A stretch of 64,000 nt of DNA from an uncultured Elusimicrobiaceae bacterium. GTDB lineage: Bacteria > Elusimicrobiota > Elusimicrobia > Elusimicrobiales > UBA9959. The stretch spans positions 318-64,317 of the forward strand of contig CAYQJX010000010.1 of NCBI GenBank assembly GCA_964417965.1, in the 5' to 3' direction. This document shows, piece after piece, positions 9,956 to 15,668 of this stretch; the first letter of the stretch is position 1; each line of letters begins with the position of its first letter. The position numbers and the translations under genes are program-made. The notes below the pieces were generated by a model. That model was not told where the DNA came from. It was given only the letters and a program-made list of their open reading frames with translations, and did no database searches.

Positions 9956-10816
9956 TTACTGCCCCGCCGTGGACGCCGGAAAGCGGCTAGCCTGCAAATA
10001 CTTCATTTCCGCCGCGTATTTGCCGCAAACAGAATTATCAAAGCCTTCCTTGCCGTAAAACCTGAAGCACTCAGAGATGTCGCTGGTAATGCAGCCCGAC
10101 GCAGGTTTGCCGATAGCCTCAAGGTTCGCGCACGCTTCCGACTCCGCCACGAAGCCGGGCTTCTTCGTCCTTTGGTAGGCGTTATTTATCTCCAGCTCCC
10201 GCTTCGCGTCGTCCGTTCTGCCAAGGTTCCAGGCAAGCTGCGCGAGATTGGAGCTTTTATCTTCCGCTTTTATGTTTATGGCGGCATCAAGATCGCCGAG
10301 GGCGTTAACCTTGTCGCCCTTGGCGAAATATGCCTCGCCGCGATCCTCCAGTATCCAGGTTTTAACATTCGGATTTTTGGTTGTTTGAAGTACTTTGGTG
10401 AACAAAGCTATTGCCGCATCGTAGTCCCCGCGCAGAAAACTGCTCATCCCCATACCCTGCCGTCCCGCGTCAGTATCCCAAAGGCCATTCCTGCGCAGGT
10501 TCGCGTCTATAAGGTCGGCAAGGTGCCGCATCTTGCCTTGCTGCACTTTAGTTCTCTCTTCGAGAGACATTCCTTTGAGTTGAGGTTTTTTCTTGCGAAG
10601 ATCCGCCATTAACCGGCGGATTTCGTCCTCGGCGGAGCCGGCATCTTCCCTGAATTTCTTGTCCGTATCTGGGCATTCAGCGCGGTCATCATTGCTCCGG
10701 CCGGCGCTTTTTGTCTGGACCGGTTTCACTTCCGGAGTCTCTCCGGGGCCGGCAAGTGCGGGCCCGGGAACAAGAACAACGGACAAGAGCGCATAAACGA
10801 ATAAACACCATTTCAT
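9956..10816 (-). CDS. Secreted TPR-repeat protein
   Basis: Signal peptide; GDYDAAIALFTKVL...RGEAYFAKGDKVNALGDLDAAI TPR pattern; ATGA overlap with the upstream gene. Confidence 0.7.
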   Translation of the reverse strand: MKWCLFVYALLSVVLVPGPALAGPGETPEVKPVQTKSAGRSNDDRAECPDTDKKFREDAGSAEDEIRRLMADLRKKKPQLKGMSLEERTKVQQGKMRHLADLIDANLRRNGLWDTDAGRQGMGMSSFLRGDYDAAIALFTKVLQTTKNPNVKTWILEDRGEAYFAKGDKVNALGDLDAAINIKAEDKSSNLAQLAWNLGRTDDAKRELEINNAYQRTKKPGFVAESEACANLEAIGKPASGCITSDISECFRFYGKEGFDNSVCGKYAAEMKYLQASRFPASTAGQ

Positions 10817-11589
10817 AAATTCTCCTCACCATTGCTACAGGATACTCCGCCTTGCATGTTCCCGGCACCTCCGGCCGCAACAGCCTCAAGCACGTCTACA
10901 CTGCGGCTGGCGGGGACCAGCAGCAGGCCCAGCTGATCCTTAAGCGCGACGGAGAGCGCCTCGCTGCTACCGCCGGCCCACGCCAGTTCTACGCGGTATA
11001 GTCCGGCCAGACCTGTCTCGTCCAGGACCGGCATGGAGAACTTCCCCTCGAGCGCCCTCGCCAAGCCGTTCATCTTCAGGCCGGCAGAACGGAGATGGCC
11101 CCGCCCGTCGCTGCACGAGCCGCCGGCGATGCCCGGGGAAAGGCCGGGCGTCGCGGCGCCCTTGTCGCGGCGGAGCAGCAGTACCCGCTTTTCTTTCTTG
11201 AGCTGCCGCACTTCCACGCCATATACAGCCTTTACGGCCTGTCGCAGCAGCGGTTTCATAATCTCTTCCGAAGCCTTCGGCACATGCACCAGGAAATCGT
11301 AATTTTTTCCCGGCAGCTCCGGCGCGATTTCTATGTTCCACCCGCTAATATCGTAAGCATGGGAAAGCATGGAGCACAGGTCCAGGCGGGTATACCTGAG
11401 CGTCGCCGTTTTGCTGTTGGAAACGTACACCAGGCCCGTTTGCCCGCTGTCCGCAGAACGGGTAACCTGCACGGTGAGAACCTCCCGGAGAACATCGCTT
11501 ACGTCCCCCTCCGGGCCCGCCGCGGGCTGCGCATTAAGGAAGTCCTTTACGATCTCGGCTGTTTCGCCGGCGCCGGGTTTTATCTTCAT
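10813..11589 (-). CDS. TIGR03435/DUF3738-like protein
   Basis: VLDETGLAGLYRVELAW and ALKDQLGLLLVP...VDVL C-terminal signature; start at 11589 overlaps the GT9 stop (ATGA). Confidence 0.65.
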   Translation of the reverse strand: MKIKPGAGETAEIVKDFLNAQPAAGPEGDVSDVLREVLTVQVTRSADSGQTGLVYVSNSKTATLRYTRLDLCSMLSHAYDISGWNIEIAPELPGKNYDFLVHVPKASEEIMKPLLRQAVKAVYGVEVRQLKKEKRVLLLRRDKGAATPGLSPGIAGGSCSDGRGHLRSAGLKMNGLARALEGKFSMPVLDETGLAGLYRVELAWAGGSSEALSVALKDQLGLLLVPASRSVDVLEAVAAGGAGNMQGGVSCSNGEENL

Positions 11590-12368
11590 TTTTTTATATC
11601 CGTCCGCCCGGCACCAAGGGTCTTCAAAGCCCTGTCCACTATCTCGCCGGCGGCTATGCTGTCCATGCCGCCGGTTCCCTCCGCGGCAGTTATCGCCTGG
11701 TGCTCCGCATACCCGTGCATGGTGGCGGCCGCGGACCCCCAAAGAGAGATAACGGGGGTGCCGGTCATGTGCGCGGCATGCATGAGGAAGTTGTCGGAGG
11801 TGATCAGCAGGTCCATCCGCTTTAGCAGCAGCACCGCCTCCTGGGGAGTGGTCACTCCGGCCAGCGAATAGGCGTATTTAACTTTTTCCGCCCCGCCCTG
11901 CCCGAGCTGCACCACCAGCGCCCCGCTGTCTCCGAGGGCCTTGGCCACCTCTCCCCACTTGCTCCTGGCCATCATCTTGCCCGGAGAAGCACTGTCCGGG
12001 GCGATGGCCACGTTCTTTGCCTGCCACGGGATCATGGAAGCCACCAGGTCGTCCGAAACCCCGTCCATAGGCAGGTACAGGGTTTCCGGCGCGGGCAGTT
12101 CCAGACCGAAGAGTTTAGCCAGACGCTGGAAAGCGCGGGAAGCGCCGCCGGCTTCGGCCCTGTCAACGGTCAGCACCGGCGCGCCCTTAGGCAGATAATC
12201 TATCTTTTCTATGGCCGGGTGGCCGGCCAGCATTCCGGCCGAGGCAGCGCGCCGGATGACGTTATACTTCTTCCCCAGCCTGTCGTGAGCCAGCTTAAGC
12301 ACCCCCGAGAGCAGCAGCGTGCCGCCCAGGCTTTCCGGAGCGTCTATCCATTGTGTCTCAGTTGTCAT
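11586..12368 (-). CDS. Glycosyltransferase family 9 (heptosyltransferase-like)
   Basis: LITSDNFLMHAAHMTGTPVISLWG and LAGVTTPQEAVLLLKRMDL GT9 C-terminal motifs. Confidence 0.75.
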   Translation of the reverse strand: MTTETQWIDAPESLGGTLLLSGVLKLAHDRLGKKYNVIRRAASAGMLAGHPAIEKIDYLPKGAPVLTVDRAEAGGASRAFQRLAKLFGLELPAPETLYLPMDGVSDDLVASMIPWQAKNVAIAPDSASPGKMMARSKWGEVAKALGDSGALVVQLGQGGAEKVKYAYSLAGVTTPQEAVLLLKRMDLLITSDNFLMHAAHMTGTPVISLWGSAAATMHGYAEHQAITAAEGTGGMDSIAAGEIVDRALKTLGAGRTDIKK

Positions 12369-13467
12369 GTTTGGCTCCCCCCTCGTAACGTAAGCCGGTT
12401 ATCGGCTCGAAATACTTTGTCAGGAACAGTTTAGTCGCGGCGCACCAGCCGGTCTTATGGCGCAGGTCACCGTGAAGGGCCAGGGAGTTCATGGGGCACC
12501 CGCCGTGGCAGATGCCCCAGAAACGGCACCCCCCGCACTCACCGGCCTGCAGCACTGCGGAACGCTCCAGCCAGTCCTTGCGCTTCTCCCTGCCGAACAC
12601 CTCGCCGATGGTGGTATCCGCGATGTTGCCGTAATTGACAAGGTTCCAGTCGGCGGAGCAGCTGCAATGCGAAAGCTCGCCCCGCGGGCCGATGTACATG
12701 TGATTATTCCCGCAGCGGCCGCCCCTGGTGCAGAGCAGGCCAGTGTCCTTACTCGTGTAGTAGCCGTAGTATTCGGAGAAGGGACGCACCATGCCGCGCC
12801 AGCCCGGGGTCTTCCACCAAAGCTTGAACATCTCACCCAGGAAATCCGCGTACTCTTCGGCCGTTATCCCGAGATCCCCCTGGTTCCCGCCTTGCACAAG
12901 CACCGGGTTTATCATCAGGTTGTCCGTCAGATTGGTCAGGAATTTCAGCAGTTCCCGCGGAACGGCCAGGGATTTTTTGGTCACCACGTAGATGATGCCC
13001 CACCGCATATCGCTTTCCTCCAGCAGGGACACGCCTTTGAGAAAGAGCTTGTTATAGCTGCCGGAATCCCTGCCGCCGCCGAACCCGCGCACATTATCCA
13101 GCGGGTCATAGCTGGTCCCGACGTTCGTTATGCCCAGGTTGCGCAGCGCGGCCACCAGTTCAGGATTGAGCAGCGTGAGGTTGGATTGTATGAGATTGGA
13201 GATCCTGCTCTTGGTGGAAGGGCAACACTCGGCCTGCAGCCGCGCCGCCTTGTTCAGGTAGTCGGCCCCGAGCATCAGCACTTCCCCGCCGTGCCAGGTC
13301 AGGTTGACATGCTCGGCCGGCCGGGCCTTAAGGTACTCGTCCACGCGGGTGAACACCAGCCTCAGCATGTCCAGAGACATGTCCGGAACGCTTTCTTTAT
13401 GCACCACGTCGCAATAGGCGCAATTGGCGTTGCAGCGCTCGGTAGCTTTGAAAATTATTGTCGGCAT
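12358..13467 (-). CDS. Radical SAM/SPASM maturase (anSME-like branch)
   Basis: CNANCAYC; WHGGE; SPASM cysteines C..C...HCSC...CGGCRFWGICHGGCP...C. Confidence 0.88.
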   Translation of the reverse strand: MPTIIFKATERCNANCAYCDVVHKESVPDMSLDMLRLVFTRVDEYLKARPAEHVNLTWHGGEVLMLGADYLNKAARLQAECCPSTKSRISNLIQSNLTLLNPELVAALRNLGITNVGTSYDPLDNVRGFGGGRDSGSYNKLFLKGVSLLEESDMRWGIIYVVTKKSLAVPRELLKFLTNLTDNLMINPVLVQGGNQGDLGITAEEYADFLGEMFKLWWKTPGWRGMVRPFSEYYGYYTSKDTGLLCTRGGRCGNNHMYIGPRGELSHCSCSADWNLVNYGNIADTTIGEVFGREKRKDWLERSAVLQAGECGGCRFWGICHGGCPMNSLALHGDLRHKTGWCAATKLFLTKYFEPITGLRYEGGAKHDN

Positions 13468-14285
13468 TTGTTGTTAACCTCATCGGCGGCTTCCAGCAGC
13501 GCCGTTATGAACGGCTTCATCCTGCAGGCGTTGGCGTCCTCGCTTTTCCTGAAACCGCACATCCGCCACGCGGGGCAAAGGGCGCAGCCCCCGAAGTTCA
13601 GCAGCGGGGCGCGGCGCTTTTCCCTGGCGGACAGGCTGAGCCCCGCGAAGTCCACAGCCTCCGGCTTATCCAACGTTCCCACAAAGTCACCTTTAGCCAG
13701 GGCGGCGCGGGAAACGGCGATATTACCCGCCTCGTCGCAGTGGAAGAAGGTCCCCTCTTTTTCCAGATAAAGCTCGTTGTAATCCGCCTGCTGGTTCTTG
13801 TACTCGGTATAAGCGTAGAGGAAGGGCTCCACCGAAGTGTGGGCCACTTTACCGCAGGAGTCATAAGCCAGCAGGTCTTCCATGGCGTCCCAGTCGGCGT
13901 TGTCCCCGTCCAGGATCAGCCCCGTCTTCACCATCAGCGAGGACAGCACGCGCGCCGCGGTGATATTTTCCGGAGTGGCCGGGAAATAAAAACGCGCCGC
14001 CGAGCTGCGCAGATTCTCAAGGGCCGGGGCACAGTCCAGAAGGCGCCCGGCGCTTTGCAGGCGGAAAACCAGCGGCAGGTCCAGCCATTCTTTTTTCAGC
14101 TCCACCCCGGCAAGGCTGTCGGCGGAGACCTCTATGCAATGCAGCCTGTCGCGGCTTACGGCCGCGGCTATCCTGCCGATCTCCCCGGCGTCCCCGGTGC
14201 GCACGGCGAGGCGGCGGGCGCCCGTTTTAGCGATGACGGCCCCGCTGAAAGGAACCACAAAGATTTGCTTTGTCGTATCTGTCAT
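13455..14285 (-). CDS. Degenerate radical-SAM-like protein: SPASM-type Cys tail but no CxxxCxxC
   Basis: FHCDEAGNI and CALCPAWRMC near the C-terminus; overlaps both flanking rSAM genes (start reset to ATG 14285). Confidence 0.6.
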   Translation of the reverse strand: MTDTTKQIFVVPFSGAVIAKTGARRLAVRTGDAGEIGRIAAAVSRDRLHCIEVSADSLAGVELKKEWLDLPLVFRLQSAGRLLDCAPALENLRSSAARFYFPATPENITAARVLSSLMVKTGLILDGDNADWDAMEDLLAYDSCGKVAHTSVEPFLYAYTEYKNQQADYNELYLEKEGTFFHCDEAGNIAVSRAALAKGDFVGTLDKPEAVDFAGLSLSAREKRRAPLLNFGGCALCPAWRMCGFRKSEDANACRMKPFITALLEAADEVNNKCRQ

Positions 14286-15283
14286 ATTTTGAAAGCGCGT
14301 ACGCCACCCTCCCGGTCTATCTCGCGCAGCACGTGCGCCGCGCAGCCGCCGTCGCATACCCCTTTTTTTCGCCAGGAGCAGCTGTCGCATTTTTCGTAGA
14401 TGCCGCCGGCTTCCTGCCTGATGTTCTTAGTGAACGTCCTGAAGTATTCCATCATGCCGTTGTAATCGTCGAAGTCGTACACCGATTTGCGGTGCGTGCC
14501 GGACAGCGGGAAGCAAGCCCACGCCATCATGTCCGGACCTATGTCCACGGGACCGCCGCAGGTGAATTTATGAACGCCCTTGGTGGCTTTATACAGCTGC
14601 CCCAGCTTTTCGTCGCTGAAAAGGCACATGGGGAACCCGCAGTCCAGCCCCGGGCAGACGTTCTGCTGGTCGAACACCGGCAGGTGGTTCAGCAGTCTGT
14701 CCACGATCCCCTGGATGTCGGGGATGGAGATGAAGGAATTATTCTCCCGCAGGATCGGGTGCGTAAGCCCCAGCCGTATGGAGCGCTTAAGCCCGTAACG
14801 GTTTATGTACTTGAAAAGGAAATCCAAACTGAAGTCTTTGCGGTAGATGTTAAAACCCGGCGTCACATGCGCCCCGAACTCCTCAAGGAACTCCTCCACC
14901 CGTTTAGTTTCGCTTTCCGGGGAGAAGGCCGGGTCGTTAAGGTTGCAGAGGAAGGAAACTTTCCTGTCGGCCTGCGGAACGGTCTTGTAAACCCGGCGCA
15001 GGTCATTTTTCACCTTCTCGGACATGATGCCGCTGCTGAAGACCGTAACGGAAAAATCCCGCTTAAGCGCGTAGGCCAGGAAGTCGGCGAACTGCGGGTG
15101 CAGCGTCGGCTCGCCCCCGAGGAACCTCATTTCGCGGCAGCCGCCCTGCGCGAACAGATCCGCGAGATAGACCAGGTCTTCCCATTTGATCACGTCGCCG
15201 CCGTCGTTCTCACCCATCTGCTTCTTGGCGAAGCAGTACGGGCAGGAACGGACGCATTTTTGTGTAAGCAGTATGTTTGGCAT
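14282..15283 (-). CDS. Radical SAM/SPASM protein
   Basis: CVRSCPYC; FLGGEPTLH; CGGPVDIGPD...AC and CDSC...CDGGC. Confidence 0.88.
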   Translation of the reverse strand: MPNILLTQKCVRSCPYCFAKKQMGENDGGDVIKWEDLVYLADLFAQGGCREMRFLGGEPTLHPQFADFLAYALKRDFSVTVFSSGIMSEKVKNDLRRVYKTVPQADRKVSFLCNLNDPAFSPESETKRVEEFLEEFGAHVTPGFNIYRKDFSLDFLFKYINRYGLKRSIRLGLTHPILRENNSFISIPDIQGIVDRLLNHLPVFDQQNVCPGLDCGFPMCLFSDEKLGQLYKATKGVHKFTCGGPVDIGPDMMAWACFPLSGTHRKSVYDFDDYNGMMEYFRTFTKNIRQEAGGIYEKCDSCSWRKKGVCDGGCAAHVLREIDREGGVRAFKI

Positions 15284-15368: not shown

Positions 15369-15668
15369 TTAGTCTTTGTACTGCACGTACTGATCATAAT
15401 AGTAGGTGTTCCCGTTACTATAACCAGCGCCGTTCGTATAGGTCCCGCTCCTGTCGCTGTTTTCCGCCGCAGCCGCCTGCAAACCGGTGACAGCAGAAGC
15501 CACATGTCCTATGGTGCTGAACTTGGGCCCCTGTACTGCGGCCGTAGCCGCATGCGCCGCCGGCACGAAAGCCCCGATGAGCTGAAGACCCATGCCCACC
15601 CCTACCGAAGCTTTCGCCATCCGTTTAAGCGCCTCGCGCCGCGAAACCCTTCCGTCTTTAACTTCCAT
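15369..15668 (-). CDS. Putative RiPP precursor 1: Tat-type signal peptide and Tyr/Asn-rich C-terminal core
   Basis: AAGGAGG RBS; SRREALK twin-Arg motif, h-region and AHA cleavage site; core GTYTNGAGYSNGNTYYYDQYVQYKD; first gene of the rSAM operon. Confidence 0.75.
   Translation of the reverse strand: MEVKDGRVSRREALKRMAKASVGVGMGLQLIGAFVPAAHAATAAVQGPKFSTIGHVASAVTGLQAAAAENSDRSGTYTNGAGYSNGNTYYYDQYVQYKD

Follow-up and report, generated by a model that had tools for sequence, protein, structure and literature searches.

Glycosyltransferase family 9 (GT9) enzymes are the textbook heptosyltransferases of lipopolysaccharide (LPS) and are antivirulence drug targets. In heptosyltransferase I (HepI, also WaaC), the mutations D13A, D261A and K192A lower activity 4688-, 2027- and 926-fold respectively, and D13 is found in all heptosyltransferases (PMC5713226). 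The closest described enzymes which act on a polypeptide are the bacterial autotransporter heptosyltransferases (BAHT) TibC and AAH, which work in the cytoplasm before export, use an N-terminal Asp as general base and have Ser-rich repeats as acceptors; in TibC the N-terminal lobe (N-lobe) is reduced, the C-lobe carries an inserted Cys4 iron finger and the D110A mutation abolishes heptosylation (PMC4358343). Here we describe a GT9-like gene which lies in a radical S-adenosylmethionine (SAM) peptide operon, within a stretch of 64,000 nucleotides (the window) from an uncultured Elusimicrobiaceae bacterium (GenBank assembly GCA_964417965.1, contig CAYQJX010000010.1). Judging from sequence conservation and structure models, our preferred reading is that the GT9-like protein is the obligate fourth component of a radical SAM system, that its family would glycosylate peptides and that the window's copy may be an impaired, structural subunit; for these three statements taken together we estimate a probability of roughly 0.5. 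The gene in question is:

11586..12368, minus strand: GT9-fold (heptosyltransferase-like) protein of 260 amino acids, a degenerate member of the radical-SAM-associated GT9-like family (Pfam, AlphaFold2, Foldseek, homologues, tree)

This was the sole long open reading frame (ORF) with family support at that place, and its identity as a GT9 protein, proposed in a first-pass annotation made from the sequence alone, was borne out by profile and structure comparisons. It matched Pfam PF01075 (Glyco_transf_9) with E = 5e−10 and 39.5 bits against a cut-off of 22, covering profile positions 72-215 of 247. The NCBIfam models for LPS heptosyltransferase I/II, RfaF and RfaQ (equivalogs scored: TIGR02193, TIGR02195 and TIGR02201) remained far under cut-off, the best being HepII with 30.6 vs 134.6 bits. 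An AlphaFold2 model built from a 41-sequence alignment (predicted local distance difference test, pLDDT, 91.6; predicted template-modelling score, pTM, 0.89) had the two-lobed GT-B fold, and when it was compared to the PDB with Foldseek the best match was WaaF (1PSW; E = 1.9e−11, query template-modelling score, TMq, 0.72), then a Veillonella GT9 protein (3TOV), WaaC (2H1H/2GT1/6DFE) and all TibC chains (4RAP/4RB4; TMq 0.63-0.69, E about 1e−8). GT9-like chains of chloroplast NDH-PSI supercomplexes (9GRX_1, 7WFF_a and 7F9O_6) were also matched. For a canonical family member, P0009 (pLDDT 90.7), TibC ranked third, above WaaC (E = 5e−11, TMq 0.68-0.69, root-mean-square deviation about 5 Å). The LPS enzymes exceed the window's protein by 60-90 residues, and the shortfall is in its N-terminal (acceptor) lobe (roughly residues 7-110). 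It begins straight at strand 1/helix 1 of the catalytic lobe, and it lacks the N-terminal catalytic Asp.

A word-indexed search returned 50 relatives of 230-333 amino acids, all of them PF01075. When 1.84 billion cluster representatives were searched with a profile, 71 matched at E ≤ 1e−30 vs 15,426 at E ≤ 1e−3, which indicates a small and distinct family within the GT9 superfamily (about 70 clusters, where clustering was at 50% identity). In a scan of one genome per species we found 42 true members, all in metagenome-assembled genomes (MAGs) of diderm lineages from about 12 phyla. Hosts were Elusimicrobiota, Bacteroidota (including Muribaculaceae), Nitrospirota, Fibrobacterota, Chitinivibrionales, Thermodesulfobacteriota, Geobacter, Myxococcota, Alphaproteobacteria, Acidobacteriota, Armatimonadota and Veillonellaceae. 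Within the window's order the system was present in only 5 of 201 genomes, 4 of which belong to the window's genus, and close relatives did not carry it; such a patchy spread is typical of a horizontally exchanged cassette.

The gene neighbourhood was the same wherever it could be read. Using the window's proteins in tblastn, we found a first radical SAM enzyme (rSAM1), a conserved protein which we call mid, a second radical SAM enzyme with a SPASM domain (rSAM2) and the GT9-like gene, in this order, in all 40 of the 40 genome loci with enough upstream DNA. Likewise, every readable metagenome context consisted of an rSAM of ~333 amino acids, a gene of ~280 amino acids, an rSAM/SPASM protein of ~369 amino acids and then directly the GT9-like gene (for the P0024 and P0037 loci the context was taken from gene tables only). 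Members were also fused to their partner enzymes: rSAM2, a linker and the GT9-like domain formed one protein in P0060 and P0087 (BLASTP E = 3e−101) and continuous ORFs of 699/700 amino acids in two Terracidiphilus MAGs (L046/L052), mid was fused to the GT9-like domain in P0064, P0099, P0102 and P0108 (E = 4e−21), and an rSAM1-type domain was fused to a sister-clade GT9 in P0116 and P0126 (E = 3e−29). We considered whether the fusions could be gene-calling artefacts of an 11-nucleotide gene overlap and rejected this, given the linkers of about 40 amino acids and the continuous ORFs in the two MAGs.

The phylogeny against WaaC and WaaF suggested with the first-pass annotation gave a clear separation. 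In a maximum-likelihood tree the family formed one clade (Shimodaira–Hasegawa-like approximate likelihood ratio test, SH-aLRT, 99), sister (95) to the rSAM1-fused GT9s and apart from E. coli WaaC, WaaF and WaaU and from the own genome's four LPS-type GT9 genes, and the window's protein grouped inside the family at 100% support. Members of the sister clade (P0116, P0126 and P0124; about 610-650 amino acids), in which GT9 is fused C-terminally to rSAM1-type domains, carry the motifs GGIGD and VDSFLNHAT and a Cys-rich tail.

Because of the 40/40 synteny, the partner fusions and the separate clade, we conclude that the gene is dedicated to the radical SAM peptide operon and not to LPS. An ordinary LPS core heptosyltransferase, present in the operon by chance, would agree with the Pfam match and with the fact that GT9 enzymes are mostly LPS enzymes, but this explanation is effectively refuted by synteny, phylogeny, the equivalog scores and the four canonical GT9 genes elsewhere in the genome; these are on another contig, in an LPS cluster beside hldE. 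The own genome's C3 gene reaches 143 bits for HepII, and the catalytic Asp is missing from the window's copy. The GT9-like protein is very likely an obligate partner, the fourth component, of the rSAM1-mid-rSAM2 system. The first-pass annotation was right to place the gene in a radical SAM peptide operon, but what it took for an unusual tailoring step of a RiPP (ribosomally synthesised and post-translationally modified peptide) pathway is a core component of the system, not an optional one.

We also compared the catalytic residues of 47 family sequences (33-88% identity), taking equivalences from a hidden Markov model (HMM) alignment to 2H1F and a MAFFT alignment with E. coli WaaC. The residue equivalent to WaaC D13 (TibC D110) is the Asp which ends the family motif W-I-N-P-x-G-G-L-G-D and was present in 44 of the 47 members. 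WaaC K192, which contacts the donor phosphate, corresponds to the Lys of S-P-R-K (47/47), the sugar-binding motif D261-x4-H266 corresponds to D-N-F-x-M-H-A-A-H (Asp and His in 47/47) and WaaC YGPT corresponds to W-G-P-T. An insert with four Cys (Cys4; C-x5-7-C ... C-x6-7-C) was found near the C-terminus in 42 of 46 relatives. The conserved catalytic Asp/Lys/Asp, together with the TibC-like reduced N-lobe and Cys4 insert, make peptide glycosylation the best reading at the level of the family, and we lean towards canonical members glycosylating the peptide. It should be noted that a mid-fused lineage (P0099/P0102/P0108) has lost the Lys, the MHAAH motif, GPT and Cys4 in a second, independent decay, indicating that the GT9 fold can persist without the catalytic residues.

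In the mechanism which we propose, rSAM1, mid, rSAM2 and the GT9-like protein would act as one cytoplasmic complex, and the system would mature peptides with a twin-arginine translocation (Tat)-like leader and a Tyr/Ser-rich core. A canonical GT9-like subunit would behave like TibC/AAH, binding a nucleotide sugar in its intact C-lobe, for which ADP-heptose is the obvious donor candidate, and its N-terminal Asp would serve as general base in the O-glycosylation of core Ser/Thr/Tyr before Tat export. The window's copy, on the other hand, would be kept mainly for a role within the maturase complex in structure, nucleotide binding or substrate docking. A supply of ADP-heptose looks available, since the own genome contains an hldE kinase domain (356 bits, above the curated cut-off) and a gmhA-like gene at 202 bits, just below the 209-bit cut-off.

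The following sites of the window's copy were compared with the family in the alignments (with 2H1F and E. coli WaaC in the case of Lys131):

12321..12335, minus strand: codons 12-16, Glu-Ser-Leu-Gly-Gly, in the loop before helix 1; Gly-Gly-Leu-Gly-Asp in 44/47 relatives, so that Gly16 replaces the catalytic-base Asp
11976..11978, minus strand: Lys131, equivalent to WaaC Lys192; retained
11778..11795, minus strand: Asp192-Asn-Phe-Leu-Met-His197, equivalent to WaaC D261-TGLS-H266; retained
11640..11700, minus strand: place where the Cys4 insert has been deleted in frame

Of the family motifs, the window's copy keeps W-I-D, the Lys and D-N-F-L-M-H-A-A-H, whilst it has SPGK for SPRK, WGSA for WGPT and no Cys in its tail. 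The sequence ESLGG was shared by the window and the orthologous contig L017, and L018 had ESLRE; these three and L019 were without the Cys4 insert. We rejected a sequencing or assembly error at Gly16, as L017, an independent metagenome contig, carries ESLGG with a different codon (GGC in the window, GGA in L017), and such a synonymous difference indicates an established substitution. Three states were found in the window's genus: canonical (G145), Cys4-less (G093/L019), and both Asp-less and Cys4-less (the own genome). This lineage is shown to have lost the Cys4 insert first and the catalytic Asp later, recently and within the genus. We found no second family copy in the own genome, an assembly of 98.7% completeness, and a second canonical copy working in trans was rejected for this reason.

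Despite these losses the gene is maintained. The ratio of non-synonymous to synonymous substitution rates (dN/dS) relative to L017 was 0.19 for the GT9-like gene, 0.06 for rSAM2 and 0.38 for the downstream DUF3738 gene. A pseudogene was rejected, with the ORF intact in three datasets and dN/dS of 0.19-0.30. The ratio of GT9-like to rSAM2 protein distance was 2.6-3.6 in the degenerate subclade vs 1.0-1.7 among canonical pairs, in a comparison of 3 degenerate and 3 canonical sequences only. Measured against its rSAM neighbour, the window's GT9-like gene evolves about three times faster, but purifying selection still acts on it.

The missing catalytic base weakens the claim of the first-pass annotation that this gene may glycosylate the core. 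Glycosylation remains the best account of the family, on the strength of its Asp/Lys/Asp residues and TibC-like lobe and insert; for the window's gene it is at odds with Gly16, SPGK, WGSA and the loss of Cys4, and the copy is probably impaired in glycosyl transfer. An alternative is that the protein is still an active peptide glycosyltransferase on core Ser/Thr/Tyr, by means of a relocated base (Glu12), substrate-assisted catalysis or an acidic Tyr phenol as acceptor. The donor-site residues Lys131, Asp192 and His197 are retained, the gene is under purifying selection, the HldE and GmhA-like genes could supply a donor and the core of the window's precursor offers Ser, Thr and Tyr, all of which would suit an active enzyme. 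However, the lost Asp is otherwise invariant over about 12 phyla, its loss costs more than 10^3-fold in HepI and abolishes activity in TibC, and it is accompanied by degenerate SPRK and WGPT motifs, the loss of Cys4 and the roughly threefold faster evolution relative to the neighbouring gene; we regard an active enzyme as unlikely.

Several points weigh against an impaired structural subunit in a glycosylating family. Glu12, four residues before the lost Asp, is new and common to all three Asp-less sequences, and L018 has a further Glu at position 16, making Glu12 a candidate for a relocated base. The donor-site residues have been kept under selection in the window's copy, which is equally compatible with residual activity and with a structural role. 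We infer the donor, acceptor and activity of the canonical members entirely from conservation and fold. The likeness to TibC/AAH does not extend to homology detectable with HMMs, to the N-terminal beta-barrel which makes up TibC residues 1-97 and is absent from the GT9-like proteins, or to the spacing of the Cys; in a family-profile search of PDB sequences at E ≤ 1, TibC was not among the matches, which included WaaF, 3TOV and WaaC. The rate comparison is also a small one.

The operon to which the GT9-like gene belongs is on the minus strand, in the order precursor, rSAM1, mid, rSAM2, GT9-like, DUF3738 and TPR:

15369..15668, minus strand: precursor of 99 amino acids; Tat-like leader (SRREALK), AHA site, C-terminus rich in Tyr (YTNGAGYSNGNTYYYDQYVQYKD); related precursors in 30+ loci
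14282..15283, minus strand: rSAM1, first radical SAM enzyme, 333 amino acids; homologue fused to a sister-clade GT9 in P0116 (E = 3e−29)
13455..14288, minus strand: mid, conserved protein of ~278 amino acids; BLASTP to the P0064 N-terminus E = 4e−21, and synteny
12358..13467, minus strand: rSAM2, rSAM/SPASM maturase, DynA/DarE/cyclophane-synthase-like; its last 11 nucleotides, with the stop, overlap the GT9-like start
10813..11589, minus strand: DUF3738/TIGR03435 protein of 258 amino acids, without signal peptide or redoxin domain, ATGA-coupled to the GT9-like gene
9956..10816, minus strand: TPR protein at the operon end, present in the window's subclade only

The overlap with both neighbours which had been noted at first pass was confirmed. 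The GT9-like ATG at 12368 falls within the last codons of the rSAM/SPASM gene, with an 11-nucleotide overlap and GGAG upstream (ATGACAACTGA; sequence around the start ...GGGGGGAGCCAAACATGACAACTGA). At the other end, the GT9-like TGA overlaps the DUF3738/TIGR03435 ATG at 11589 as ATGA (AAAAAATGAAG), and the same 4-nucleotide junction is found in L017. The longest DUF3738 ORF (TTG at 11742) would give an overlap of 157 nucleotides; homologues favour the ATG at 11589. In comparison with NCBIfam models rSAM2 was nearest to DynA, anSME, DarE, cyclophane synthases, AmcB and GrrM, and mid had no Pfam or NCBIfam match.

In most loci, across phyla, small precursor ORFs were found either ahead of rSAM1 or behind the GT9-like gene. 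They carry a Tat-like leader, (S/T)RR(E/D)ALKR(I/M)A, and a low-complexity core rich in Tyr, Ser and Asn, with core Tyr of up to 69% in Bacteroidales, so that there are plenty of Ser, Thr and Tyr residues as potential acceptors. The precursors of Bacteroidales/Muribaculaceae (L023:4435, L026:4418, L024:6351 and L059:7045-8530, all plus strand) are 120-220 amino acids long with near-pure Y/S/N cores (YYSYYYYYNYY...), and in L059 three tandem precursor genes follow the GT9-like gene. In appearance such precursors are closer to material-forming polypeptides than to the short cores of classical RiPPs. The gene downstream of the GT9-like gene encodes, in canonical Elusimicrobia relatives, a fusion of a Redoxin (AhpC/TSA) domain with DUF3738, with a signal peptide (L001:8849-10030 and L003:8172-11174), the precursor core carries two Cys and, in L003, DsbD comes after the Redoxin-DUF3738 gene. 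In the window's subclade the DUF3738 protein is without redoxin domain or signal peptide and the core is without Cys, which coincides with the loss of Cys4 from the GT9-like protein.

These neighbours also bear on whether the family acts on peptides at all. It might instead act on a sugar or envelope glycolipid together with the radical SAM enzymes, by radical tailoring of a heptose-type sugar, or only bind a nucleotide cofactor, with the peptides being neighbours or scaffolds. In its favour, all hosts are diderm lineages with LPS, and the link between the peptide and the GT9-like active site is an indirect one. We nevertheless find it improbable, as precursors with Tat leaders and Tyr/Ser-rich cores adjoin the four-gene core in the majority of loci, across phyla, rSAM2 is nearest to peptide maturases (DynA, DarE, AmcB and GrrM), no sugar-nucleotide biosynthesis, flippase or polyprenyl genes were conserved in the cluster in the contexts which we read, and the short N-lobe resembles that of the protein-acting TibC and not the lobes which bind lipid A-Kdo.

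A number of variant loci and genes were also observed. In an alphaproteobacterial locus the core has, immediately upstream of it, a further and divergent GT9-like copy which points the other way (L036:2908-3588, minus strand), and in a Bacteroidales locus the rSAM/SPASM gene is present as two tandem paralogues ahead of the GT9-like gene (L028:4809-6972, plus strand). Amongst the own genome's other GT9 genes, the best HepII-like gene (G000:C3:61287-62456; L005:790-2280, plus strand) encodes 496 amino acids, including an extra N-terminal part of ~165 amino acids with a weak match to the GT9 N-lobe, which suggests a partial internal duplication. At G000:C6:67356-67931 (L006:1354-3342, minus strand) a single ORF of at least 662 amino acids (open frame 981 amino acids) joins an asparagine-synthase/lasso-cyclase-like amidotransferase domain to a full-length GT9 domain, another unusual GT9 fusion.

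The four-gene core with Tat-leader, Tyr-rich precursors is an undescribed system with a wide distribution among uncultured bacteria of soil, groundwater and the gut. No Pfam or NCBIfam model covers the four-gene core and our literature search returned no paper which covers it or which links GT9 to RiPPs or radical SAM enzymes; in the same literature we found no description of a hyper-modified product class of this kind or of a GT9-radical-SAM pairing. More tentatively, and at somewhat less than even odds, the GT9-like family may constitute a novel class of enzymes which glycosylate peptides, probably as O-heptosyltransferases, and be integral to a four-protein radical SAM machine which is present in at least 12 diderm phyla, including gut Bacteroidales/Muribaculaceae, and which would make cross-linked and glycosylated, Tat-exported, Tyr/Ser-rich polypeptides. 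If so, GT9-fold enzymes would act on a third class of substrate besides LPS cores and autotransporters, and RiPP-type pathways would gain a glycosyltransferase which is hard-wired into the radical SAM machinery. The window would then be a natural pseudo-enzyme control, as a cluster whose GT9-like subunit has lost its catalytic base should give a product without glycosylation and leave that subunit a structural role, and the series within the genus, from canonical to Cys4-less to Asp-less, would tell apart what the subunit does structurally and what it does catalytically.

When the family is set beside known systems, WaaC (HepI) and WaaF (HepII) are the best matches in both sequence and fold, with Lys192 and Asp261-x4-His kept and the Asp13 equivalent kept in canonical members. 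Unlike them, the GT9-like proteins are shorter with a truncated acceptor lobe, form a separate clade, score under the equivalog cut-offs and are never in an LPS context, and in the window's copy Asp13 is replaced by Gly. The glycocin-type glycosyltransferases SunS, ThuS and GccA are also encoded by a dedicated gene in a ribosomal-peptide operon, but they are GT2 enzymes with a GT-A fold and UDP-hexose donors which modify core Ser/Thr/Cys, and they are not known to be obligately paired with radical SAM enzymes or fused to them. The rSAM/SPASM enzymes of the triceptide and DynA-DarE systems are the nearest to rSAM2, and aromatic-x-Asn/Asp/Ser motifs in the cores are a common feature, whereas those described have no GT9-fold subunit, second rSAM of the rSAM1 type, ~280-amino-acid protein or Tat-type leader. 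The GT9-like chains of the chloroplast NDH-PSI supercomplexes, which we take to be non-catalytic, offer a case of a GT9-like fold persisting as a structural subunit of a large complex, although they are eukaryotic, from an unrelated context and similar at the level of the fold only. Lastly, TibC and AAH, which the GT9-like protein would most resemble in its mode of action without belonging to the BAHT family, differ in that no autotransporter substrate lies near the GT9-like gene, whose partners are radical SAM enzymes, and in that the window's copy is without both the Asp and the Cys4 insert; they are alike in their WaaC-related GT-B fold and reduced N-lobe and, for canonical members of the family, in the Cys4 metal-finger insert of the C-lobe.

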